Assembly: GCA_037131105.1 (NCBI GenBank)
Contig: JBAXRQ010000001.1
Coordinates: 66,039 to 130,038, forward strand
Source of the DNA: a bacterium
Lineage (GTDB): Bacteria > Patescibacteriota > UBA1384 > CAILIB01
Reading direction: 5' to 3'
Length of the DNA: 64,000 bases
A program made the position numbers and the translations under genes. The notes under the pieces were generated by a model that saw only the letters and a program-made list of their open reading frames with translations, did no database searches and was not told where the DNA came from. The first letter of the stretch is position 1; each line of letters opens with the position of its first letter. Of this stretch, positions 17,461-47,765 are shown in pieces.

Positions 17461-18291
17461 TTAGTAGCCGAAGCGCGCTATCAGTATGAGCAGCACCAAG
17501 GCCAGGGCGAACCTATAATAGGCGAAGCTGGTCAGCGAGTAGCGGGTATAGAACCTCAGCAGGAACTTCAGGGTGAAGTATCCGGTGATGAATGAGACGA
17601 CCGCGCCTACGAGATAGAAGGCAAGTACGTCGGCGGCAATTCCCTGGCTATGAATGAGGCTAACGAAGTCCAGCAGCTTCTTGCCGGTGGCGGCGATGGT
17701 GATCGGTACTGAGAGGAGGAAGCTGTAGCGGGCGGCAGTTACCCGGTCCATACCGAGGAAGAGACCGGTGGTAATGGTTATGCCGGAACGGGAGACGCCG
17801 GGAACGAATGCCAGACACTGGGAGAGAGCGGTCGCAACTATCTGAAGAGGAGTAGGTTCAACGTTGTGGTCGCGCCGCCAGGTGATCACTTCGGCCACGA
17901 TCATCAGGATACCTACGATGACAAGGCTGGCGGCGATATATGAGAGTGAGCGAAACTGGGTCTCGATCCGCTTCTGCAGCAGCATGCCGAGCAGGCCAAC
18001 CGGGACAGTGGCTCCCAGTATTAGCCAGGGCATCTGTTCCTTGGCGGCAAGCGGCTTGGCACCGGAGGGGAGGCGGAGCCTTCCGAAGATGTCCCTAAGG
18101 TCACTCCAGAAAAAGATAAGGACGGCGGCGATAGTCCCAAGATTGATAAACATGTCGAAGGACAGGCCGTAGGTGGCCTGATTCAGTCCGAACAGCTTCT
18201 CGGTAATGATAAGGTGTGCGGTGGAGGAGACCGGCAGGAATTCGGTAATGCCTTGGACGGCACCAAGGATGATAGCTTGGATAATGTGCAT
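17461..18291 (-). CDS. uppP: undecaprenyl-diphosphate phosphatase
   Basis: GITEFLPVSSTAHL signature. Confidence 0.9.
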   Translation of the reverse strand: MHIIQAIILGAVQGITEFLPVSSTAHLIITEKLFGLNQATYGLSFDMFINLGTIAAVLIFFWSDLRDIFGRLRLPSGAKPLAAKEQMPWLILGATVPVGLLGMLLQKRIETQFRSLSYIAASLVIVGILMIVAEVITWRRDHNVEPTPLQIVATALSQCLAFVPGVSRSGITITTGLFLGMDRVTAARYSFLLSVPITIAATGKKLLDFVSLIHSQGIAADVLAFYLVGAVVSFITGYFTLKFLLRFYTRYSLTSFAYYRFALALVLLILIARFGY

Positions 18292-18383
18292 AGCCTTACT
18301 ATAGCTGCCTTAGCTGAGGGTTTCCAGCCTAAAAGCCAAAACCCCGGCCACAGGACGTGGGCGGGGAGTTGGGAAAGGCCGTG

Positions 18384-18767
18384 TCAGTCGATGCGGCGGC
18401 TCTTCATCCAGGTGCTGAAGATCTCTTCTCGAAGGAGGTTAAGGACTCCAGGAGTCACAAGGAAGAGGACGTAGACGGCAGGTATGGCTACATAGCCAGG
18501 AAATCCAACAGAGCAGGATATCCAGCCGGCGGCTATGCCAAGGCAGATAGTGCGGACAAGCTCCAGATAGCGGGCTGGCGCCTCAAGCCAGCGGACTACA
18601 ACGTCGGATGTGAAAGGGGCGGCTGCCACTCCCAATAGGATATACACGTGCTCGGTAGTGCGTAGGAATTCAACTTCAACCCCAACGAGTGTGATGAGCA
18701 ATAGTATCTTCATGCCAGCAATAACTCGTCTTGCTATGCGCTCAAATATTGCAGGGTTCACGGTCAC
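18384..18767 (-). CDS. hypothetical small membrane protein (127 aa, 3-4 TM)
   Basis: hydrophobic profile; same strand and tightly spaced with 18787 and 19200. Confidence 0.45.
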   Translation of the reverse strand: MTVNPAIFERIARRVIAGMKILLLITLVGVEVEFLRTTEHVYILLGVAAAPFTSDVVVRWLEAPARYLELVRTICLGIAAGWISCSVGFPGYVAIPAVYVLFLVTPGVLNLLREEIFSTWMKSRRID

Positions 18768-18786
18768 TCCTTTTCAAATGCTAGGA

Positions 18787-19167
18787 CTATACTGTCCAGT
18801 CGGCTCCACCGACTTCCCATCCTACCTTCCCGACATAGTAGTTGCTGATTGCTACCACTGCTCCCCAGGCAAGGGAGGCGATGGCAAGAAGGACCGGTGT
18901 GAGGTTGGCGTATGCCCAGATTACGCAGACGCTGATAGCTACAAAGGCCAGTATCGGTGAAGCGCATTCGAGGGACATGCCGAAAGCTCTTCTGGTGTCC
19001 CATCTCTCACTGTAAAAGCCCTTGCTTACGCTGGTACTCGTGAGTCGTATACCCCAATACTGGGCAGCTAATGAAAGAACCCACATGACTACACAAATGA
19101 TGATCATCAGTCTATCCTTTTGTGCCACAGGAATGTTAAGCGGCAAATAATGTCCGTGGCGGGACAC
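18787..19167 (-). CDS. hypothetical small membrane protein (about 110-126 aa)
   Basis: hydrophobic profile; 30-bp gap from the upstream large gene. Confidence 0.45.
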   Translation of the reverse strand: MSRHGHYLPLNIPVAQKDRLMIIICVVMWVLSLAAQYWGIRLTSTSVSKGFYSERWDTRRAFGMSLECASPILAFVAISVCVIWAYANLTPVLLAIASLAWGAVVAISNYYVGKVGWEVGGADWTV

Positions 19168-19199
19168 TCTTCAGGAGGAGTGTATCTGTTCTGCTACTC

Positions 19200-21059
19200 T
19201 TATTCAAGGCCGGGAGTCAGCTGTTTCATACGTTCCTGAAAGCGTTTGTTTTGCTGTGCTTGCTGATATAGGTTTGGAAATCTTTTGAGATGGTCAAGGG
19301 CGAGTATCTGCAGTTCGTCGTCGTCAAACGTTACGCAGCTAAGGGATATCTCGCCAAGGTCATCCTTTCGATACAGGCTGTCAAATACTGCTCTCATGTC
19401 GATGCCTAGTTCAGGGTACTCTTTCTGGAGACTGAAGAGAGTCCCGGTCTTGCTGGAGGTAAATATTCTCTTAGTTGTGTTGGGGATCTCAGCGGCTAAA
19501 TAGGGGATAAGTGTTGGAGGTAGGTTCTGGGTGGTGCCGGTGGTTAGGATGAAGTCAAGAACATTACGGGCAAAGACGGCTTGTTGGGCCTCAACTGTGG
19601 AGTGGCCGCCGGCATCCTTCCGGGAAGCGCTTTCTATTCTTTGTGCGTAGTAGGCCATGATGGCATGGATCGCCTCGGGGTCTGGGTTGCGTCTTAGCTG
19701 GTCTTCGTAGGCTTGAACTATGGGTTCCATGCGAGTCGGGGTATAGTCCAGATCGTACATTTCGCCGGTTTTGAGGTTCTCTTTTGCCCAGGTTGCATCA
19801 ACGACCGTGACTTCGCCGGAGCCGTCCTTTGTGACGGTGAGAAAGCTGTTCCAGGCATGGGATGTGTCGAGGTTTTCCTTTCCGGGCGCATAGTCGTGGC
19901 CGCTGCTGTATATACAGTGGGTGTTGCGAAGCTGGTTGAGCTCTTTCTGGCTTGCCTTTAGTGCGTTGAAGACATCCAGTACGGCTGCGGCAAAGTTTCG
20001 ACAGACCCCGTTTCCTTTCCAATCAGGATCGCTACGATTGATTAGTCCTTCCTCCAATAGCTCGATGGTGGAGCTGGTGTCGGCGGACGTAGGGGCATAC
20101 CGTTCTGTTATCTCCCCTTTCTCATCTCTCTTCACCCGCTCTGATTTATAGTCGGCGTAGTATTTTCTGAGCTTGACTATCAGAGAGGTCGATAGCTCGG
20201 CCGCTTGCCGGGGGCTCAACTCGCGCAGGTTGGTGATCCCGATCTGGCGGGCAAGTTCGGGCTCTTCCTGGAGCAAATAGCCTTGCACAAAGCGGTAGAG
20301 CTCTCGTTCCCACCCCTCTCGTTTCATGGTCTCACTGTGGGTGGCCACTCTCGTAAGCTCACGCTCGTACTCGCCTCTTACACCCCCGATCTGGGAGTGA
20401 GCGTAAGCGTTATCAGAGGTGTAAAACTTATCCCCGAGCTCCTTGCTGATGGGGTATTCCTGGTCAGTAGGCGAAGGCTGAGGGTCGTAGCCGTTGAAAT
20501 CCACGAACGAGACGGTAGTGTTTGGGTCGGGCTTGAAGCGGAGCAGGGGGCTGTGACTGAGCTGTTCCTCGTAGTGGGCCCGTTGGTCGATGTAGCAGTG
20601 TCTGGCTTCTTCCCAGGTCGCACAACGTGAGCTCCCGATGACCAGTTCACCACTTTCCAGGTCAACTAGCTGGGGGTAGACTACGGCATACGTTCCATCC
20701 GGCTTTTTCTCAATGCTGCAGTTCACCGTATAGGTCGCGGCCAGCTCTTTCTGGTCGTAATATTCGCGCATGAGGGTTCGTTTCTGCATCCAGTCACCTG
20801 CTCCTTTCTGGATGTCGGCTTGTGCCTGCATGTCGATCTGAGAGTCAGCTGCGGCACGCTCGGCACTTTCGCGGTCAAAAAACCCTTCGGTGGCGGTACC
20901 GATTATTCTTCCGTTGAAATCGGTGAGCCCTGGGAGAATTGCCTCGAAGGCGCCGCTTGCAGTCTCTCGCACTTCATACAATGCGGAAAGACCCCGCTGT
21001 TCCGGCCTAGGTGTCTCGGCGTCTTTAACCGGTGGTGCTTCGTGCTCGTAACTCATCAC
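19200..21059 (-). CDS. large cytoplasmic protein with central transglutaminase-like cysteine-protease core
   Basis: GNGVCRNFAAAVLDVF (Cys), about 39 aa later SHAWNSFL (His), about 17 aa later VVDATW (Asp): spacing typical of the transglutaminase-like superfamily; about 340-aa N-terminal and 200-aa C-terminal regions unrecognised; no signal peptide. Confidence 0.6.
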   Translation of the reverse strand: MMSYEHEAPPVKDAETPRPEQRGLSALYEVRETASGAFEAILPGLTDFNGRIIGTATEGFFDRESAERAAADSQIDMQAQADIQKGAGDWMQKRTLMREYYDQKELAATYTVNCSIEKKPDGTYAVVYPQLVDLESGELVIGSSRCATWEEARHCYIDQRAHYEEQLSHSPLLRFKPDPNTTVSFVDFNGYDPQPSPTDQEYPISKELGDKFYTSDNAYAHSQIGGVRGEYERELTRVATHSETMKREGWERELYRFVQGYLLQEEPELARQIGITNLRELSPRQAAELSTSLIVKLRKYYADYKSERVKRDEKGEITERYAPTSADTSSTIELLEEGLINRSDPDWKGNGVCRNFAAAVLDVFNALKASQKELNQLRNTHCIYSSGHDYAPGKENLDTSHAWNSFLTVTKDGSGEVTVVDATWAKENLKTGEMYDLDYTPTRMEPIVQAYEDQLRRNPDPEAIHAIMAYYAQRIESASRKDAGGHSTVEAQQAVFARNVLDFILTTGTTQNLPPTLIPYLAAEIPNTTKRIFTSSKTGTLFSLQKEYPELGIDMRAVFDSLYRKDDLGEISLSCVTFDDDELQILALDHLKRFPNLYQQAQQNKRFQERMKQLTPGLE

Positions 21060-21125: not shown

Positions 21126-21752
21126 ATGAAATACCAGGTGCCTGCACTCTACAAGCGCATAGATGCCTTTGCCAAGACCCCGGCCAATGCCCTGGTCGCC
21201 TTTCTATGGGGGGTATGCGAGGGGATATTCTTCTTTATAGTACCGGATGTCTACTGCGCCTATATCACGCTTTTCAACCGAAGAGCCGGCTGGACCGCTA
21301 TAGGCTTTTCAATCCTGGGTACCCTTCTGGCCTCGGTGGTCATGTATGCAGTCGTAGTGCTGGCGGGCAACGGGATCATTACCTACCTTCTGCACGTGCC
21401 TGAGATTAGCCGCCCCATGCTGGATACTGTTTCGAATACGCTAGCGGCTGGGGGCCTGGCGGGGCTGGGGAAGCTGCACATCTCCCGGCTGATACTGGGG
21501 GCCATTCCCAGTAAGGTGTATTCGAGCTTGGCGGCGCTTGCCGGAATACCCCTGTGGGCCTTTCTGCTCTGGACCATTCCTATGCGTATTCTGAGGCTTT
21601 CTTGGGCCATGCTGCTTTCCACCTGGCTGAATGGCAGATATAGCGCTAGTATTAAGGCGCATACCAAATCCTGGACCGTGGGGTATGTCATATTCTGGAC
21701 CGTGTTGCACGCATCATACTATGTAGTCGTCGCCCTTAGCTTTCACCAGTAA
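21126..21752 (+). CDS. hypothetical polytopic membrane protein
   Basis: 5-6 TM; first gene of the phospholipid cluster. Confidence 0.5.
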   Translation: MKYQVPALYKRIDAFAKTPANALVAFLWGVCEGIFFFIVPDVYCAYITLFNRRAGWTAIGFSILGTLLASVVMYAVVVLAGNGIITYLLHVPEISRPMLDTVSNTLAAGGLAGLGKLHISRLILGAIPSKVYSSLAALAGIPLWAFLLWTIPMRILRLSWAMLLSTWLNGRYSASIKAHTKSWTVGYVIFWTVLHASYYVVVALSFHQ

Positions 21753-21763
21753 CTGAAATTATC

Positions 21764-22363
21764 ATGGGTATCTACTCGGTAAAGCCAAAGTTTCAGAAGA
21801 TTCTTACCCCGGTGAAAGACCTGCTGGTGAGGGGAAAGGTGCATCCGACCACCATCAATATCATCGGGCTGGCGATCTCGCTCCTGGCGGGCATAGCGCT
21901 TTATTACTCAGGACAGTATGCCCTGCTGCTCTGGTACATCCCGGTGGCCGGCTTTGTGCGTACTGCCTGTAACGCCTTGGATGGCCTGGTTTCAAGAGAG
22001 CTGGGGGAGGCCTCGGCCTTTGGGGAGGTGCTCAATGAGTTCATTGACCGCATATCCGACTCGGCTATCTTTCTCGGCGTCACGTTCTCGGCATTAGCTG
22101 ATATGCGACTGGGGATAGTTACTCTGGTAGTTATCCTGCTGAACAGCTATCTCAGCATCGTCAGCAAGGCAGCTGGCGGTAGTAGGCAGTACGGAGGCAT
22201 CATGGGTAAGGCCGATAGGATGATCTACCTCGGTATCGCTGCGGTGGCTGTAGCTGTGAGCGGTTATACGGAGATCTGGAATTATTTCCTTGTCTTTATT
22301 CTAGCCGGCACTATGATTACCATGTACCAGCGCTTCATGGTCACCCGCAAGGAGCTTGCCTAG
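21764..22363 (+). CDS. CDP-alcohol phosphatidyltransferase family protein
   Basis: DG(x2)AR(x8)G(x3)D(x3)D motif: NALDGLVSRELGEASAFGEVLNEFIDRISD. Confidence 0.75.
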   Translation: MGIYSVKPKFQKILTPVKDLLVRGKVHPTTINIIGLAISLLAGIALYYSGQYALLLWYIPVAGFVRTACNALDGLVSRELGEASAFGEVLNEFIDRISDSAIFLGVTFSALADMRLGIVTLVVILLNSYLSIVSKAAGGSRQYGGIMGKADRMIYLGIAAVAVAVSGYTEIWNYFLVFILAGTMITMYQRFMVTRKELA

Positions 22364-23315
22364 TATGGAGGGCCTCTTTGCGAATCCGCTGGCAAATCCC
22401 ATTTTCATCCCCCTGATGACCAGGATGTTGGTGCTCTTTTCGGCCGGCTTCCTGATCCTGTTGGCACTGAAGAAGGGTAATTATGCTGCCCTGATGGGCT
22501 CGAACCTCGGCCAGCGTTACGTTGGCTGGCTCATTCTTTTTCCGATCTACGTGGTAGGCACCTTTTTCGGTGCTCTTTTTGGTCATATCGTACTCTTTGC
22601 TTTTATGTACCTGGCCTTGGCCGAGATAGTCAGGGTCTCGGGACTTTCGCGGGCGTACCACGTCGCCTTGGTGGTTCTCTCGATCTATAGCCTGTTCATC
22701 GCTGCCTTGCATCCTGAGTATTTCTTCTCCCTCCCCTTGGTGTACTTCATTGTCCTCACCCTGGTCGCTATCCGGTCCAATGACGCTGAAAAGGGTCTGC
22801 AGCAGGCGGCCGTCTCCCTATTCGTGGCCATCTGGATTATCTTCAGCATGAGTCATATCGACCTACTGGCCCACCTGAACAACCATCTTGATCAGACCAG
22901 TAGCTTGGTCTTCCTGGTGATCTTCGCGGTGGCCCTGGCCGATATCGGAGGATATATCTTCGGCAAGACGTTTGAGAAGCTGCATTTCTTTGATGCCTAC
23001 AAAATCGCTCCCAACCTTAGTCCAAATAAGACGTATGCGGGGACGCTGGGCTATATGATTGGCGCCGGCATCGGTATCGCCTTCCTCTACTTCGCGGTGG
23101 GAGGGTACCTGGCCCCTCCGCTCTGGGTTGTTGTAGCTGTTCTGATTGGCTTGTTCGCTCCGGTCGGGGGGATGACTCACTCGCTTTTCAAACGTTTTTA
23201 CGGTGTGAAGGACAGCGGTAGCCTGATTCCCGGACACGGCGGTATCCTGGACCGGGTAGACAGCATGGTCCGCGTAGTGGTCATCCTCTATTATTTCTTC
23301 CGACTATTCCTCTAG
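22356..23315 (+). CDS. cdsA: phosphatidate cytidylyltransferase
   Basis: SPNKTYAG...KRFYGVKDSGSLIPGHGGILDRVDS signature. Confidence 0.85.
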   Translation: MPSMEGLFANPLANPIFIPLMTRMLVLFSAGFLILLALKKGNYAALMGSNLGQRYVGWLILFPIYVVGTFFGALFGHIVLFAFMYLALAEIVRVSGLSRAYHVALVVLSIYSLFIAALHPEYFFSLPLVYFIVLTLVAIRSNDAEKGLQQAAVSLFVAIWIIFSMSHIDLLAHLNNHLDQTSSLVFLVIFAVALADIGGYIFGKTFEKLHFFDAYKIAPNLSPNKTYAGTLGYMIGAGIGIAFLYFAVGGYLAPPLWVVVAVLIGLFAPVGGMTHSLFKRFYGVKDSGSLIPGHGGILDRVDSMVRVVVILYYFFRLFL

Positions 23316-23642
23316 GAGGGTCACGGTGGCGATAGCATAGTCGCAGTCATGGGAGATGCTGCAGTCTAGTGAGAGAATGGTTTTTTGGTGGGCTTCGGGG
23401 GATATCTTAAGGGACGGTTTGCCGTTTTCAGCATAGATGACCTCGATATCCAGCCAGCTGCCAGCTTTGAGCCCGAACGCCTTGAGAGCGGCCTCCTTCA
23501 GGGCGAAGACTCCTGCCGCATGCAGGGGATCGCGGCGGCGCAGCTCCCCGGGATGAAATATGCGGAAACTCGAGGCTTCGCTTTCTATAAGGGGAAGGAC
23601 ACGATCTATCTTCACGATGTCGCAGCCGGTAGAAATAGTCAT
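23304..23642 (-). CDS. acpS: holo-[acyl-carrier-protein] synthase (4'-phosphopantetheinyl transferase)
   Basis: start at internal M (MTISTGCDIVKI), AGVFALKEAALKA, SISHDCDYAIATV; ORF-track start at 23753 adds 37 non-conserved residues. Confidence 0.75.
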   Translation of the reverse strand: MTISTGCDIVKIDRVLPLIESEASSFRIFHPGELRRRDPLHAAGVFALKEAALKAFGLKAGSWLDIEVIYAENGKPSLKISPEAHQKTILSLDCSISHDCDYAIATVTLLEE

Positions 23643-26101
23643 AACTCTTCCACCATCTTCTGGATCGCTTCGGTCGCTTGGATATAGGAAAGGGTTCTGG
23701 AAAGCGTGACCGGGGACCCGATTGTGACCGTAGTAGTTCCTTTTTTTGGCCAATGAGAGCCTTTAGGGAGAAGGTTCTGGTTTCCCTGCATCTTAATAGG
23801 AACGATAGGGCCCCCGAGTTCCAGGGCGGCCAGTCCTATACCATGTTTGAAGGCGCCGAGTCTGCCAGTAGTGCTGCGGGTTCCCTCAGGATAGATCAGT
23901 ACCGAGTAGCCGCGGTCCAGGAAGGCTCCCATGGCGGCAATGCTGCTGCCGGCATTTCCGTCCCGGTCGACGGGGAAGGCATTGAAGAGTAGTCGGGCCC
24001 AGAACGAGCGGATCCTGGTTTTGAAGAAGTAATCCTTGGCAGCGGCGGTAGCTAGATGGTCACTGATGCCAAAAGGCAGGGACCGCAGAACGGTAGGGGT
24101 GTCGAAATGACTGGTATGGTTGGCGACGAAGATAGACGGTTGCTGAGGCATTTCGCCCACCAGTCTGACCTGAAGCCGCTGGTAATACCAGACAAAGACC
24201 ACAATGGGAACGCGAAGGATGACGCGGATAAAGCCTATTCCCCATGAGAGTGGCCAAAGGACTATGGGCTGTCCGCTTAGTTCAGCGGCCTTTCCGACCT
24301 TGACCAAGTTTGCCAGTTGACCGACGCTGGTGGTCTGGTCGAGCTCATCCTCGCTCAATACGGTCCCTAGATCTTCTTCAATCTGGGAAAGAAGCTCTAG
24401 CCGTTTGATTGAATCAAGACCAAGGTCAGCCACTAACAATTGGGAATCCGCCAAGGTGTCAGGCGCTACCGAGCAGACGCGGGAAAGAATAAGAAAAAGG
24501 GCTGAGACATCCTTGCCAGTGTCACTGTGGGCTAGCGTCTTGTCGTCATGCGACTGCTCTAGCCGCTTCCTTATCTCCTCCCTACGGACTTTGCGGGTGG
24601 TGGTGCGGGGAAAGTCCTCATCAGGCCAAGGGATTATCTCGCGTAGGGTCTGGTGCGAAGCCAGGCGTCCGTTTAGGGTGACTGCCATCTCTTTCAGGTC
24701 GGGCTGTCCGACGGAAATGACCGTGGCTACCAGTTGAATCTCGCCGTGGCGCTCTATACCGGTTACCACGCTGTCACGCACCGTAGAGAGTCCGTTTAAG
24801 AGCTTTTCGATGTCTTCCGGGTGCACCTTCATTCCCGAACTAGTAATGATCATGGTCTTGATGCGGCCTTTCAGTCGCAGGTAGCCATCAGAGCCAAGCT
24901 CGCCAATATCGCCGGTTTTGAACCAGCCTTCCGGGGTAAGGGTCGCTGCGGTAGCCTCGGGGTTCTGCCAATAGCCCTTAAAGATGTGCGACCCCTTGAG
25001 CTGGATCTCGCCGCCTTCGGCAAGGGTCAGCTCTTGTTCGGGAAGTGGTCTGCCGACGGTCCCGGCCTGATAGAAGAGCAGGCTACTTGAGGTGACGGCG
25101 GGACTGCTTTCGGTCATCCCGTAGCCTTGCAGAACGTGGATGCCTAGCCTTTCCCAAAAGTCTTCGACTTCGGTGGGAAGGGGGGCGCCGGCTACAGTAA
25201 AGAAGATAAGTCTGCCGCCGAGGCTTCGGTGGATGCCATGGAAGAGTCGTCGTCGAAAGGACCGGGGAAGGCGGCCGGCCAGGTGTAATGCTCGCTCGAG
25301 CTGCTTGCTGCGGCCTTGTTCGCTAGCCTCCTGGACGATGCGATGCTGCATAAGCTCAAGAAATGCCGGCACGGTCACCATGGTGGTAGGCCGTTCCAGT
25401 CTGAGGCTGCGGCGAATCTCCACTGGCCTAACCGATATCGGATAGATCACTGGGCTGCCGCAGGCAAAGGGTACGAACAGGCCGAGAGTCTGCTCGAACA
25501 TATGGCTGAGAGGTAGGGTGGAAAGGAGCCTGTAGTCGTTGCCAATCTCCCAGGCCTGTCTGAGTGAGGTTATGTCGGAAAGGATATTGCCATGGCTGAG
25601 CATCACTCCTTTGGGCGTCCCAGTGCTGCCTGAAGTGTAAACAATCTCGAGTAGATCATCGGGCTCGGTGGCTATGGTAGTGGTGTGACGGGGAAGCCCA
25701 CTTATGAGGGAGGGGAGCTCTTCAAGGGGAACGACCATGGCGTTTGTGGGGAAGAAGGACTGTTTGAAGAGTGAGGTGAAACAGAGCTTGGGAGAGGTCT
25801 GCTTTAGAACGCTGTCGATAAAATCGGGCGTGGAGTTTAGATCCAAGGGCACCGCGATGACACCTAGCTTGGCGCAGGCGAGGAAGGCGGCCACCCAGAG
25901 GGGGCTGTTAGTGCCACAGATCACTACTCGGTCTCCCTTGCGGAGGTGGCCGTATTCAAGCAGTGTTGCTATGCGGGCCGATACCTGCAAAATCTGCTCA
26001 TAGCTCCATTCAATGCGGCGATAGCGTCGTCGTTCGATGAAGGCTGTCTGAGATCCGCGTCCAGCCGCCGTATTCTCTAGGTAGTGAAAAAGATTCTCCA
26101 T
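23639..26101 (-). CDS. three-domain fusion: acyl-AMP/acyl-CoA ligase + phosphopantetheine carrier domain + PlsC-type acyltransferase
   Basis: YTSGSTGTPKGV AMP-binding box; LGLDSIKRLEL carrier motif with Ser; NHTSHFD (HX4D) and YPEGTRS acyltransferase motifs. Confidence 0.8.
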   Translation of the reverse strand: MENLFHYLENTAAGRGSQTAFIERRRYRRIEWSYEQILQVSARIATLLEYGHLRKGDRVVICGTNSPLWVAAFLACAKLGVIAVPLDLNSTPDFIDSVLKQTSPKLCFTSLFKQSFFPTNAMVVPLEELPSLISGLPRHTTTIATEPDDLLEIVYTSGSTGTPKGVMLSHGNILSDITSLRQAWEIGNDYRLLSTLPLSHMFEQTLGLFVPFACGSPVIYPISVRPVEIRRSLRLERPTTMVTVPAFLELMQHRIVQEASEQGRSKQLERALHLAGRLPRSFRRRLFHGIHRSLGGRLIFFTVAGAPLPTEVEDFWERLGIHVLQGYGMTESSPAVTSSSLLFYQAGTVGRPLPEQELTLAEGGEIQLKGSHIFKGYWQNPEATAATLTPEGWFKTGDIGELGSDGYLRLKGRIKTMIITSSGMKVHPEDIEKLLNGLSTVRDSVVTGIERHGEIQLVATVISVGQPDLKEMAVTLNGRLASHQTLREIIPWPDEDFPRTTTRKVRREEIRKRLEQSHDDKTLAHSDTGKDVSALFLILSRVCSVAPDTLADSQLLVADLGLDSIKRLELLSQIEEDLGTVLSEDELDQTTSVGQLANLVKVGKAAELSGQPIVLWPLSWGIGFIRVILRVPIVVFVWYYQRLQVRLVGEMPQQPSIFVANHTSHFDTPTVLRSLPFGISDHLATAAAKDYFFKTRIRSFWARLLFNAFPVDRDGNAGSSIAAMGAFLDRGYSVLIYPEGTRSTTGRLGAFKHGIGLAALELGGPIVPIKMQGNQNLLPKGSHWPKKGTTTVTIGSPVTLSRTLSYIQATEAIQKMVEEL

Positions 26102-32202: not shown

Positions 32203-32239
32203 AAATGAAAAAGTACCACTTAGTGGTACTTTTTCATTT
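32203..32239. terminator. perfect hairpin after tRNA-Ser(TGA), core of a longer imperfect IR (32178-32264)
   Basis: aaatgaaaaagtaccac-ttag-gtggtactttttcattt. Confidence 0.75.
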
Positions 32240-32323
32240 GGCGGAGGGTAAAGGAATCGAACCTTCAACATTGCTGTTGGTCCGGTTTTCAAGACCGGTT
32301 ACGAGCCACTCGTACTACCCTCC
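32239..32323 (-). tRNA. tRNA-Ser (anticodon TGA), type II, CCA encoded
   Basis: manual cloverleaf; anticodon stem CCGGT/ACCGG, loop CTTGAAA, variable arm CAACA-GCAA-TGTTG. Confidence 0.85.
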
Positions 32324-32361
32324 ACGTGCCGTCCCAGTCCCAGCACTATACCAATTCCAGG

Positions 32362-45875: not shown

Positions 45876-45994
45876 GAGTCCTTTTCCGGGAGGGTTGGCT
45901 AGGACGTGAGCGGTATCCTCTGTGCGCGTCCCGCACCAGCGAAGGTCTTCCTCGTAGTGCTCCCGATTGAGTTTCAGGCAAAGTTGTTTGTTGT

Positions 45995-46024
45995 TTGCAT
46001 CCCCTTGCCGTTCTCCTCTATACT
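45995..46024 (+). promoter_or_regulatory. sigma70-like promoter TTGCAT-18-TATACT
   Basis: upstream of the 46056 start, which has an AAAGGGGGG SD. Confidence 0.45.
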
Positions 46025-46055
46025 GAACCTAGAACGTTTGAGCCTAAAGGGGGGA

Positions 46056-47765
46056 ATGCCACACGCAACTATTGAGCAACATGTGCAGAAGCTGGACGAG
46101 CGCGTTGAGCGTCTGGAACGTCGTGTAGACGCTTCCTGGCATCGTCGTCTCCTTGCCTCCATTCGTGCTCTGACCCCTGGTGAGGTTTTGCATATGACTG
46201 GTTGGCTGCTTGTGACCGTCTCTGCTCTTTCCCTCTTTGCCACCAACGACAGCGCCGACACCAGCGTGCTGGTTTCCTGCGTCGGTCTGCTGGCCGGATT
46301 GTGGCTAGTATTTAGGGACTCTTCCTGGCCTCGCATCAGCCAGTCTACTCGTCATCTACTCCAAGAGGAGCGCAGTGCTCGTCGCATTCATGCTACTAGC
46401 CAGCACCAGCCGTTCTTTTCCTTTGCCAAAGAGGACACATCCTGGCAGGCTATGACTGGTTACTACCTAGTTCTAGCTGCTTCGCTCTTATTTGCTCTAG
46501 TGTATGCATGGTTGGTTCTCACCTATCTTCCTGAAGGTGCTTGGCAGCTATGGGGGGCATTGCTGGTGCCTACCGTGGGTCTGGCCTATTCCCTAGCTGG
46601 CTCTCATCGCTCACTACTGTACTTCTCCTTGGTCGCTGTCTTCTTGCTGCTGAGCTTCACCCAGGCTCCGCTCTTTGCCCTGGGATATCTTACCCTTCTG
46701 GCCCTAGCCTTCGTCGCGTGGGTCTGGATGAGCCGTGATTGGCCCTCTCTGCTTCTGGTAGTGGCAGGAAGTTACGCAGTACTTGCTCGCTGGGCACTCT
46801 ATCCTGAAAGCTCCGCCACCATTTTGATGGTACTGCTGACTTCCCTCATCCTTTCGCTTGCCTTCGTACTTCCTTTTGCTCTGTTCCGCCGCGAGGCTGC
46901 GAATCGAGAGTTTGTCCGCCGGACCATATTTGGTAGCGTGGCGGCTTTCGTGCTGTTGCCCCTCCTACTACCTGGTAATCCTGTTTTCTCAGTAGCCTGG
47001 ATGGAGTCAGCCGGCCTGTATCTGCTAGTACTTATTGCTTTGGGCCTCATTAGCCTTATGCGCTACGGACGCTATTCCTTTGCCAAGTACTACGGCATAG
47101 CGGCTTTGGGACTACTCATGCTGGTGGCGCTGCTGGCGGGCAATACCGGGCTTACTAGTATCCTCTGGTTTGCCGTAAGTATCATTGCCCTGGGACTGGG
47201 CTTCTCAGTAGGGAGCTACAGCGTACGTACCGTCGGGCTCTGCTTGCTCGGGCTTACGCTTCTCTATTATCTTTCCGCCATTTTCCCCTATCCTACTTTG
47301 GTTCCCGGTCCCTTCCTGCTCCAGCAGCGTATCTGGCTGGGGGCAATATTTGCGCTGTTCCTTCCGGTGCTTGGGTTCTGGTATCGCGACCTTCCGGCTG
47401 GTGAGCCTGAGACGGCCGAGCGAAGCTATATCATTGAGCTGCTCTATGTAGGGTCCTTCATGCTGCTGCTTGGCATCGGCTGGGTTGGCTTTCAGGCTCC
47501 GGCCCAGACTGTATTTTGGTTGGTAGTGGGAGGTGTGTACCTCCTGGCTGGGCGTATTCAGAAGCTGCAGGTGGTCCAGTCTTTGGCTATCGCTGGGATG
47601 CTTTCGGGACTGGGCAAATACTTCTTCTTTGACAGCCTTTCATTGCCAAGAGAGGATCGCATTGCCATGCTGGCTGGGTTCGCTGTGTTGGCGCTACTGG
47701 CGGGCGTGCATCTCATCAGACATGTTTCCAAACCTCATATTACCCGTAAGTCAGAAACCCTATGA
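46056..47765 (+). CDS. large polytopic membrane protein with N-terminal coiled coil (DUF2339-like)
   Basis: start at M51 of the ORF-track ORF (good SD and promoter); at least 14 TM. Confidence 0.5.
   Translation: MPHATIEQHVQKLDERVERLERRVDASWHRRLLASIRALTPGEVLHMTGWLLVTVSALSLFATNDSADTSVLVSCVGLLAGLWLVFRDSSWPRISQSTRHLLQEERSARRIHATSQHQPFFSFAKEDTSWQAMTGYYLVLAASLLFALVYAWLVLTYLPEGAWQLWGALLVPTVGLAYSLAGSHRSLLYFSLVAVFLLLSFTQAPLFALGYLTLLALAFVAWVWMSRDWPSLLLVVAGSYAVLARWALYPESSATILMVLLTSLILSLAFVLPFALFRREAANREFVRRTIFGSVAAFVLLPLLLPGNPVFSVAWMESAGLYLLVLIALGLISLMRYGRYSFAKYYGIAALGLLMLVALLAGNTGLTSILWFAVSIIALGLGFSVGSYSVRTVGLCLLGLTLLYYLSAIFPYPTLVPGPFLLQQRIWLGAIFALFLPVLGFWYRDLPAGEPETAERSYIIELLYVGSFMLLLGIGWVGFQAPAQTVFWLVVGGVYLLAGRIQKLQVVQSLAIAGMLSGLGKYFFFDSLSLPREDRIAMLAGFAVLALLAGVHLIRHVSKPHITRKSETL

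Follow-up and report, generated by a model that had tools for sequence, protein, structure and literature searches.

Among CPR bacteria (Patescibacteria), a CPR-wide protease of the transglutaminase superfamily, CPR-C4, has already been characterised; it is a single-domain homodimer of 221 aa with a Cys61-His93-Leu(carbonyl) triad and a zinc site, and CPR-C4/vasohibin-like proteases are widely conserved in these bacteria without annotation (PMC9108980). Cys-His-Asp triads are found in the Pfam family PF01841, represented here by 3ISR of Cytophaga hutchinsonii and TgpA of Pseudomonas aeruginosa (6G49), in the eukaryotic enzymes TG2, factor XIII and peptide:N-glycanase, and in Salmonella SpvD (5LQ6), which has a small papain-like core.

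The protein family described here has the same Cys-His-Asp order and the same order of helices and strands as PF01841, with the Cys at the start of a helix in G-x-C-R-D/N-F-A, the His in H-A-W and the Asp in D-A/P-T. It departs from PF01841, however, in that a long stretch is inserted after the Cys helix, ahead of the first strand, and in that its flanking domains are entirely different (two N-terminal strand-helix modules, and helical domains). Whereas TgpA is periplasmic and membrane-anchored, the family is soluble and has no signal peptide. Like the CPR-C4/vasohibin-like proteases, it is widely conserved in CPR bacteria and unannotated; in contrast to CPR-C4, its members are multi-domain proteins of 600-750 aa that have an Asp in the triad and a 48-residue Cys-His spacing. 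The family shares its triad type and predicted core topology with TG2, factor XIII and peptide:N-glycanase, but it lacks beta-sandwich and barrel domains as well as any PUB or Rad23-binding region, and calcium or zinc sites were not recognised. SpvD is a secreted type III effector, whereas the present family has no link to a secretion signal or system.

A multi-domain protein family of Patescibacteria

The large gene lies on the minus strand at positions 19200..21059 of the window, the 64,000-nucleotide stretch of DNA analysed (ORF list; NCBI locus tag inferred as WCO52_00485). It encodes 619 aa from a GTG start, or 618 aa from the ATG at codon 2 (21056). The initial annotation saw no signal peptide. 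The maximum 19-residue Kyte-Doolittle mean is only 0.95, and the lack of a hydrophobic stretch supports a soluble protein without such a peptide; 158 of 160 family members likewise have no hydrophobic 19-residue window. The family members are soluble, acidic and multi-domain, and we infer a cytoplasmic location. The other 619-aa ORF of the window (45906-47765), considered as a possible paralogue, is unrelated.

The AlphaFold model (mean pLDDT 81, pTM 0.79; 85-97 across most of the core) suggests a layout of a disordered N-terminus, two tandem strand-strand-strand-helix modules, a helical domain, a very divergent transglutaminase-like core and a helical C-terminal domain. The two N-terminal modules, each of three strands followed by a long helix, span residues ~24-85 (20805..20990, minus strand) and ~110-168 (20556..20732, minus strand), as placed by the model and by the repeat consensus DGxFxVxLPGLxDxxxGxxVGTxxxxFxTxEEAExA. 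From alignment, the model and hhalign, the predicted core covers residues ~331-440 (19740..20069, minus strand); alignment and model place the all-helical C-terminal domain at residues ~441-614 (19218..19739, minus strand), where most family members have ~100 more residues. Identification of the N-terminal repeats as Cauli_VI, DUF1508 or DUF5633 is unproven, as every Pfam match was sub-threshold: the three models recurred in 12, 9 and 3 of 46 members, respectively, and in the 10 members inspected the matches were mostly confined to the 'F-x-T-x-E-E-A' strand-helix junction.

Translation confirmed the three putative catalytic residues. The predicted nucleophile, Cys353, is read back in GNGVCRNFAAAV (codon 20001..20003, minus strand; GNGVCRNFA), His401 in SHAWNSF (codon 19857..19859, minus strand) and Asp421 in VVDATW (codon 19797..19799, minus strand), with spacings of 48 residues between Cys and His and of 20 between His and Asp. 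Conservation of the catalytic Cys in orthologues had been set beforehand as a test on which the transglutaminase-like reading could fail, and the outcome was plainly in its favour. Across 146 family representatives the Cys was kept in 145 of 145, the His in 143 of 143 and the Asp in 139 of 141, the other two having Glu. All three residues are also invariant in a 16-sequence alignment, and the surrounding G-N-G-V-C-R-N, H-A-W and D-A-T-W are nearly fixed in the family.

The large protein had no match in Pfam, NCBIfam, PADLOC, PHROG or PDB sequences, and searches of PDB sequences with the protein and with full-family, core and N-terminal profiles gave no relevant chain. Its own family is nevertheless broad: at 50% identity it comprises at least 307 clusters with E <= 1e-3, and 138 of these reach E <= 1e-30; a word-indexed search returned 16 homologues. 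The closest relative, at 46% identity, comes from a Berkelbacteria bin. Among GTDB species genomes, 40 carry the family, 29 with Patescibacteria names and 11 with non-CPR names that are unverified; the Patescibacteria lineages include Berkelbacteria, Saccharibacteria, Moranbacteria, Levybacteria, Uhrbacteria, Gracilibacteria and Peregrinibacteria. A literature search for the family returned only CPR-C4, of another family, and a host transglutaminase that is unrelated. The family is undescribed, unnamed and almost confined to the ultra-small Patescibacteria (CPR).

Probable likeness of the core to the transglutaminase fold

In the model, a helix (353-369) begins at Cys353 and is followed by strands at 380-388, at 400-409, which carries His401, and at 415-420, next to which stands Asp421. 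The Cys is thus at a helix N-terminus and the conserved His and Asp are on successive strands. The PF01841 fragments of 3ISR, TgpA and peptide:N-glycanase have the same helix/strand order, and the 48- and 20-residue spacings fall within the range of these fragments and of TG2. Around the three residues, G-x-C-R-x-F-A, H-A-W and D-x-T are classic motifs of the superfamily, reportedly set out by Makarova, Aravind and Koonin in 1999.

Direct comparison of profiles was suggestive. Alignment of the core with a PF01841 profile by hhalign gave a probability of 64% (P 6.6e-5, score 30.0), whereas the reversed profile and 100 column-shuffled controls scored no higher than 21.2. Cys, His and Asp were in register when the alignment was extended at low stringency. 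An independent run with a 15-sequence alignment gave 52% (P 1.4e-4), confined to 20 columns near the Cys, whose helix supplied most of the score. Both probabilities are below the usual 90-95% bar for homology. The PF01841 profile was built from one subfamily (58-88% identical to 3ISR) and three PDB fragments, and is therefore narrow.

Standard searches did not recover such a relationship. PF01841 had no match in the window protein (E <= 1), in 16 family members (E <= 10) or in 10 outlying members; indeed, no Pfam model matched usably in the 16 members, even at E = 10, or in the ten outliers. Profile searches of PDB sequences returned no transglutaminase-like chain. The initial annotation had named structural similarity as a further test; in Foldseek, the whole model gave only weak, non-significant helical-repeat matches in the PDB, and the core model gave no significant match in the PDB or BFVD. 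Among the 50 core matches shown, TG2 ranked second (E 0.54, TM 0.33) and SpvD third (E 0.61, 81 columns), both non-significant. A CPR-C4 or vasohibin chain appeared in none of the PDB sequence, profile or core Foldseek searches, and membership of the CPR-C4/vasohibin-like group (CP01A) was rejected, given the Asp in the triad, the multi-domain 619-aa protein and the lack of any such PDB match.

The transglutaminase-like Cys-His-Asp core that the initial annotation proposed receives fair support from triad conservation, from the helix/strand order and from the hhalign register, and finds no counterpart in PF01841 searches or significant Foldseek matches. With a PF01841 probability of only ~52-64% and nothing significant in Foldseek, the reading, which draws on sequence and on a predicted structure, is supported, not proven; we nonetheless consider a papain/transglutaminase fold of the core quite probable. 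The central domain might instead be an unrelated fold that happens to conserve Cys, His and Asp, for instance as a thiol enzyme of a new fold, or to bind a metal or cofactor. The want of Pfam or PDB sequence matches, the non-significance of every Foldseek match, and an HH alignment whose confident part is the 20 columns around the Cys would all fit such a fold. We regard it as unlikely, because the order helix(Cys), strand, strand(His), strand(Asp) and its spacing agree with PF01841, the hhalign score exceeds all 100 shuffled controls with the triad in register, two members of the same superfamily are second and third among the core Foldseek matches shown, and the local motifs are those of the superfamily. 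It is far less probable still that the core is an inactive transglutaminase-fold scaffold for binding, of the kind seen in the Rad4/XPC TGD or protein 4.2. The core does lie between large helical domains and repeats, as would be expected of a scaffold, but inactive members of the superfamily typically lack the triad, and here it is kept in essentially all of the divergent representatives.

Two small membrane-protein genes and the gene neighbourhood

As the initial annotation had it, three minus-strand ORFs of 619, 126 and 127 aa lie in this region, the two small ones encoding multi-TM proteins. The first small ORF downstream of the large gene (18787..19167, minus strand; NCBI WCO52_00480, hypothetical protein) encodes an orphan membrane protein of at most 126 aa. 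Its likely start is the ATG at 19107, preceded by AGGA, which gives 106 aa with about three hydrophobic segments; NCBI uses the same start. The second (18384..18767, minus strand; NCBI WCO52_00475, hypothetical protein), another orphan membrane-protein ORF of at most 127 aa, probably starts at the GTG at 18761, 5 nt past AAGGAG, as in the JGI and ENA records, to give 125 aa with about four hydrophobic segments; NCBI instead uses the ATG at 18713 (109 aa). The intergenic gaps, put at about 30 bp by the initial annotation, measure 32 nt before the first small ORF and 19 nt before the second on maximal ORFs; with the probable starts they are ~92 and ~25 nt. A comparison of the two small proteins as possible paralogues of one another was negative.

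A hairpin followed by a T-run, resembling a terminator, lies directly 3' of the third ORF (18331..18356, minus strand; placed at 18341-18356 by the consensus scan), and the same kind of scan placed a promoter-like site 5' of the large gene (21146..21175, minus strand). These two signals are compatible with a single three-gene transcript here. The scan found 5 promoter-like sites against 2.5 expected in shuffles; another of its pattern matches (18298-18326) lies before uppP, the next gene. In the spacer that separates the first small ORF from the large gene the folding z-score was -0.3, which does not indicate a structured RNA, and an Rfam scan of the window found only tRNAs. The large gene and the two small genes are probably co-transcribed in this genome.

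Both small ORFs may be questioned as genes at all. A codon model for which 25 long genes of the window served as training set (mean 0.33, sd 0.13) gives them scores of 0.15-0.19, near the bottom of the range for genuine genes; their GC3 is 0.56-0.58, compared with 0.67. Together with the want of homologues and the disagreement of annotation pipelines on starts, this would be expected if one or both had arisen by chance in intergenic or 3' untranslated sequence. Yet the annotated frame of each is clearly the best of six in the codon model, each has a Shine-Dalgarno-like motif at a plausible start and regularly spaced hydrophobic segments, the PGAP, JGI and ENA callers all predict both, and a compact genome would otherwise be left with ~810 nt of non-coding sequence. 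Chance ORFs are thus an improbable explanation.

The initial annotation had likened the layout to a toxin/immunity, peptide-maturation or envelope-remodelling module, and had proposed a look for co-occurrence in related genomes. None was found in the related loci searched. Against 5.8 billion proteins the 127-aa protein found only itself, and a search for close relatives of the 106-aa protein found only an identical copy in JGI metagenomes; the 90% clusters of the small proteins have 1 and 3 identical members. By tblastn (E <= 1) neither small protein had a match in 47 related loci. The two small genes are lineage-specific orphans and not conserved partners of the large protein.

Nor did any other partner emerge. 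Across 41 non-redundant loci, no protein cluster recurred within 5 kb of the homologues (the best, ABC ATPases, was present in 4), and the immediate neighbours differed in size, strand and hydrophobicity; among 139 nearest neighbours no Pfam family was matched by more than 3 members. PADLOC matched none of the three proteins to a defence system, and scanning all three against Pfam, NCBIfam and PHROGs likewise yielded nothing usable. Matches to Tox-MPTase4 (E 0.077, one family member) and Imm59 (E 0.093, one N-terminal fragment) were taken as chance. Since several homologues have an ORF of 175-208 aa just upstream, as does the large gene of the window, we considered these as a conserved partner; phmmer showed them to be mutually unrelated, the divergently oriented 208-aa protein of the window included. 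RiPP/lasso-peptide maturation of the McjB type was rejected on the neighbouring genes of the window, namely BacA/UppP, VIT1, DUF2207, CDP-alcohol phosphatidyltransferase and CdsA, near which a signal peptidase is also encoded; neither an Asn-synthetase-like cyclase nor a RiPP recognition element was present among these or among the Pfam-scanned neighbours of homologues.

A module restricted to this lineage, in which the two small membrane proteins are partners or targets of the enzyme (a toxin with its immunity protein, say, or an enzyme that they anchor at the membrane for envelope work by the uppP/lipid genes), would account for the common strand and short gaps, and for a terminator-like site only after the third gene with a promoter-like site before the first. 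Slightly low GC3 and low codon scores (0.17 for the large gene) are common to all three genes relative to their neighbours, envelope and lipid functions are frequent among the surrounding genes (BacA/UppP, CDP-alcohol phosphatidyltransferase, CdsA, signal peptidase), and co-transcription here is compatible with some local functional link. We nevertheless think such a module distinctly unlikely. Besides the searches for the small proteins, which are absent from 47 of 47 related loci, and the lack of a PADLOC match, the Berkelbacteria closest relative has unrelated neighbours in convergent or divergent orientation, a small multi-span membrane ORF is next downstream in only 1 of 41 other loci, where it lies on the opposite strand, and the enzyme family is conserved over many CPR phyla without any partner.

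A predicted enzyme and its meaning

The explanation that we favour, at a probability of roughly 65%, is that the large gene encodes a standalone, divergent enzyme of the transglutaminase superfamily whose domains are arranged in a new way, and that the two membrane genes behind it are orphans specific to this lineage. Both the catalytic activity and the type of reaction are what we infer from the triad and its setting. Cys353, at the N-terminus of its helix, would be activated by His401, itself oriented by Asp421. The thiolate would then attack an amide or isopeptide carbonyl of a cytoplasmic protein or peptide substrate to form a thioester, to be resolved by water, as in a protease, amidase or deamidase, or, less likely, by an amine, as in a transamidase. 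The flanking domains may select the substrate. The gene would act alone, and in other genomes lies amid housekeeping genes that are unrelated.

A more specific proposal is that the family is a CPR-specific protein-modifying enzyme with a targeting architecture. The N-terminal modules, as domains of the RNase H1 N-terminal/DUF1508 type, could bind nucleic acid or ribosomes and steer the enzyme towards a substrate that is a nucleoprotein. Or else the protein could be exported without a signal peptide and modify host-cell proteins in an epibiotic lifestyle. Even taking the two versions together, we judge this proposal to be unlikely. If true, Patescibacteria would have an enzyme-targeting architecture that is new and found in them alone.

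The failure of the three-gene module beyond this genome limits the reach of the finding. Patescibacteria, however, account for much of the diversity of bacteria, and the majority of their proteins lack a functional assignment. The family of the large protein is broad, extends over many CPR phyla and has an essentially invariant triad, yet falls outside the Pfam, NCBIfam, PHROG and PADLOC models; it offers a tractable soluble target for work on structure and activity. A second, architecturally different family besides CPR-C4 would suggest that thiol-dependent protein processing or modification recurs in reduced CPR genomes.

Predicted catalytic centre and core fold

Translation of the window returned exactly the three consecutive minus-strand ORFs reported in the initial annotation: a large gene encoding 619 aa (19200–21059) and two small ORFs with maximal lengths of 126 aa (18787–19167) and 127 aa (18384–18767). 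It also confirmed, in the large protein, the GNGVCRN motif with Cys353 (codon 20001–20003) and TSHAWN...VVDAT with His401 (19857–19859) and Asp421 (19797–19799). All three residues, together with the flanking G-N-G-x-C-R-N-x-A, H-A-W and D-x-T-W-A, were invariant in a 16-sequence alignment. Among 146 domain matches from 50%-identity representatives, the aligned columns held Cys in 145/145, His in 143/143 and Asp in 139/141 (the other two being Glu). The catalytic Cys, on whose conservation in orthologues the transglutaminase-like reading had been staked, is retained, and the reading survives on this point.

An AlphaFold2 model computed from the family alignment (mean pLDDT 81, pTM 0.79; most of the core 85–97) places Cys353 as the first residue of helix 353–369, followed by strand 380–388, strand 400–409 starting at His401, and strand 415–420 ending immediately before Asp421. 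3ISR, TgpA (6G49) and mouse PNGase (2F4M), core sequences of which were obtained by PDB search, show the same succession in their transglutaminase-like cores: helix(Cys)-strand-strand(His)-strand(Asp). The Cys–His/His–Asp spacing is 48/20 in the large protein, compared with 34/15 in 3ISR and 44/17 in TgpA; in TG2 it is 58/23.

Searches of Pfam, NCBIfam, PADLOC, PHROGs and PDB sequences gave no match to the large protein, and no convincing Pfam match was found in 16 family members or in ten outlying members (up to 1,203 aa). Of the named families, PF01841 is the closest. hhalign comparison of a 122-sequence core alignment with a PF01841 profile (120 PF01841-annotated proteins plus fragments of 3ISR, 6G49 and 2F4M) gave Prob 64%, P 6.6e-5 and a score of 30.0, versus 10.7 for the reversed alignment and a mean of 10.0 (maximum 21.2) for 100 column shuffles. 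The alignment paired GVCRNFA of the family with GVCRDFA of PF01841, and HAW with HA(C/W); at low alignment stringency it extended so that VVDAT aligned with IFDAT. An independent hhalign run with smaller alignments gave Prob 52% and P 1.4e-4, covering only 20 Cys-helix columns. We conclude that the core (residues about 331–440) very probably (about 0.8) adopts a transglutaminase/papain fold, in highly divergent form. The initial assignment is reasonable, and the domain is formally a putative member of the superfamily: triad and topology agree, the PF01841 Pfam model does not match, the profile comparisons are suggestive, and Foldseek searches with the whole and core models gave no significant match.

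Distribution and architecture of the family

The large protein is acidic (Asp+Glu 98 versus Lys+Arg 70) and has no hydrophobic segment (highest 19-residue Kyte–Doolittle mean 0.95), in agreement with the proposed lack of a signal peptide. A hydrophobic window was likewise absent from 158 of 160 family proteins, which indicates a soluble family without a classical export signal.

A word-indexed search found 16 homologues with 27–46% identity across nearly the full length. Exhaustive searching with a profile, covering 1.84 billion cluster representatives, returned 307 clusters at E <= 1e-3 and 138 at E <= 1e-30. Scanning one genome per GTDB species gave 40 loci with a homologue. By record title, 29 of these belong to Patescibacteria (Berkelbacteria, with the closest homologue at 46% identity, Saccharibacteria, Moranbacteria, Levybacteria, Magasanikbacteria, Uhrbacteria, Falkowbacteria, Gracilibacteria, Peregrinibacteria, Paceibacterota and "Patescibacteria group"). 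The remaining eleven (loci L010, L015, L019, L024, L028, L029, L031, L033, L034, L038 and L047) are labelled as groups outside CPR: Gammaproteobacteria, Flavobacteriales, Bdellovibrionales, Pseudomonadales and delta proteobacterium. All eleven names come from automatically named "TPA_asm: uncultured" bins; either these bins are mislabelled or the family reaches beyond Patescibacteria.

Outside the core, one strand-strand-strand-helix module occurs twice, at residues 24–85 and 110–168 (20556–20990, minus strand; alignment A3 of the N-terminal repeats), with the common consensus DGxFxVxLPGLxDxxxGxxVGTxxxxFxTxEEAExA. In a Pfam survey of 46 members the repeats gave recurrent matches, all sub-threshold, to DUF5633 (12/46, best E 0.006), Cauli_VI, the RNase H1 N-terminal domain (9/46, best E 1.9e-4), and DUF1508 (3/46, best E 0.001). 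In ten members inspected, these were mostly limited to the last strand and helix start, at the 'F-x-T-x-E-E-A' junction. The repeats may be a nucleic-acid-binding-type module, a lead rather than an assignment. Helical domains flank the core at 227–297, where L-T/S-P-x-Q-A is invariant, and at 440–614; at the C-terminus, most members extend about 100 residues further than the window protein and its relative from Berkelbacteria. In five distant members of about 950–1,200 aa (P0142, P0154, P0157, P0158 and P0159), similarity to the family is confined to profile positions about 140–420, which comprise the linker, helical domain and Cys-His-Asp core. Their large additional regions had no convincing Pfam match (one member had weak, sub-threshold ones), so the core is found in other architectures too. 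Another window ORF of exactly 619 aa (45906–47765, plus strand), with no Pfam match, is not a relative (BLASTP E > 5); the equal length is a coincidence.

The small genes and their neighbourhood

Start context suggests that both small proteins are shorter than their maximal ORFs: an ATG at 19107 after AGGA gives 106 aa for the first, and a GTG at 18761, 5 nt past AAGGAG, gives 125 aa for the second. PGAP annotates them as hypothetical proteins WCO52_00480 (106 aa) and WCO52_00475 (109 aa, versus 125 aa in the JGI and ENA calls). Each ORF has three to four hydrophobic segments, and scored highest in its own frame under a codon model derived from 25 long window genes. Scores were 0.15–0.19 for the small ORFs and 0.17 for the large gene, at the low end against a training mean of 0.33 (sd 0.13); GC3 of the three genes was also somewhat low (0.56–0.62 versus 0.67). 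Both measures lie below those of neighbouring genes, and the 2-kb bin 18000–20000, into which the two small ORFs and the large gene's 3' end fall, ranks third from lowest in G+C within the window (0.527 versus about 0.556 overall). These values may reflect fast evolution or later acquisition.

A pattern scan, reporting consensus matches only, found promoter-like sites 5' of the large gene and 5' of uppP, and a terminator-like hairpin plus T-run directly 3' of the third ORF; with this placement the three genes could form one transcript in this genome. Between the large gene stop and the first small ORF, an inverted repeat (19164–19183; 8-bp arms, 4-nt loop) overlaps the GTG start of the maximal ORF; the spacer folds no better than shuffles (z = -0.3).

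The initial annotation had likened this layout, a large enzyme followed by small membrane proteins, to toxin/immunity, peptide-maturation or envelope-remodelling modules. Neither small protein had a tblastn match in any of 47 related loci, even at E = 1. The 127-aa protein matched only itself among 5.8 billion proteins; the sole match of the 106-aa protein in the metagenome collection was an identical 2.7-kb JGI contig. Their 90% clusters hold identical sequences only, and they are not paralogues of each other. All-against-all BLASTP of ORFs within 5 kb of 41 non-redundant homologues gave no cluster in more than four loci, the most recurrent being generic ABC ATPases. The ORFs directly on either side differ from locus to locus in strand, size and hydrophobicity; among the 41 loci a small multi-span membrane ORF comes next downstream only in L042, on the opposite strand. 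The 175–208-aa ORFs often found upstream are mutually unrelated. No Pfam family occurred in more than three of 139 nearest neighbours, and the families present are housekeeping ones (ComM/Mg-chelatase-like ATPase, ClpB, YchF, Fpg, S20, DNA polymerase III delta), as individual gene tables agree. A conserved three-gene module is, on these sequence comparisons, not supported.

Within the window, the unit is followed by BacA/UppP, VIT1, DUF2207 and signal peptidase genes. Divergently upstream lie a 208-aa unannotated hydrophobic membrane protein (21126–21752, plus), a CDP-alcohol phosphatidyltransferase (21764–22363, plus) and CdsA (22356–23315, plus). This envelope/lipid flavour is absent elsewhere, so no function was read from it. 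The 208-aa protein is a singleton 90% cluster with no Pfam, PADLOC or PHROG match and is unrelated to ORFs 5' of homologues elsewhere. Beyond CdsA are a holo-ACP-synthase-sized ORF (23304–23753, minus) and an 820-aa fusion of AMP-binding, phosphopantetheine-binding and acyltransferase domains (23639–26101, minus), reminiscent of Aas-type acyl-ACP synthetase/acyltransferase; 21764–26101 looks like a lipid-salvage cluster. Elsewhere, ARAGORN calls a tRNA-Ser with anticodon TGA at 32239–32324 (minus), and the Rfam tRNA-Sec score there is marginally above gathering (50.8 versus 47); the anticodon favours an ordinary long-arm tRNA-Ser over tRNA-Sec.

Predicted chemistry and relation to known enzymes

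Catalysis in the transglutaminase superfamily is the basis for the following analogy. His401, oriented by Asp421, would deprotonate Cys353, and the thiolate would attack a protein or peptide amide to form a thioester, to be hydrolysed by water (protease, amidase or deamidase) or resolved by an amine (transamidase). The near-fixed Arg354, Asn355, Trp403 and Thr423-Trp424, and a conserved D438-x-T-x-x-R443 just past the core, are candidates for the oxyanion and substrate sites. By this analogy the large protein is probably an active thiol enzyme, with a hydrolase clearly favoured over a transferase.

The closest biological precedent is CPR-C4, a CPR-wide protease of the same superfamily, with 221 aa, a single domain and a Cys-His-Leu(carbonyl) triad (PMC9108980). 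It gave no match to the family by sequence or Foldseek, and the literature searched held no paper describing the family. In this one genome, two predicted orphan membrane-protein genes lie 3' of the enzyme gene. The family, mainly confined to Patescibacteria, is very probably a new and divergent branch, with several domains, of an enzyme superfamily already known; unsurprising in kind, it marks a gap in annotation and is a useful candidate for biochemistry.
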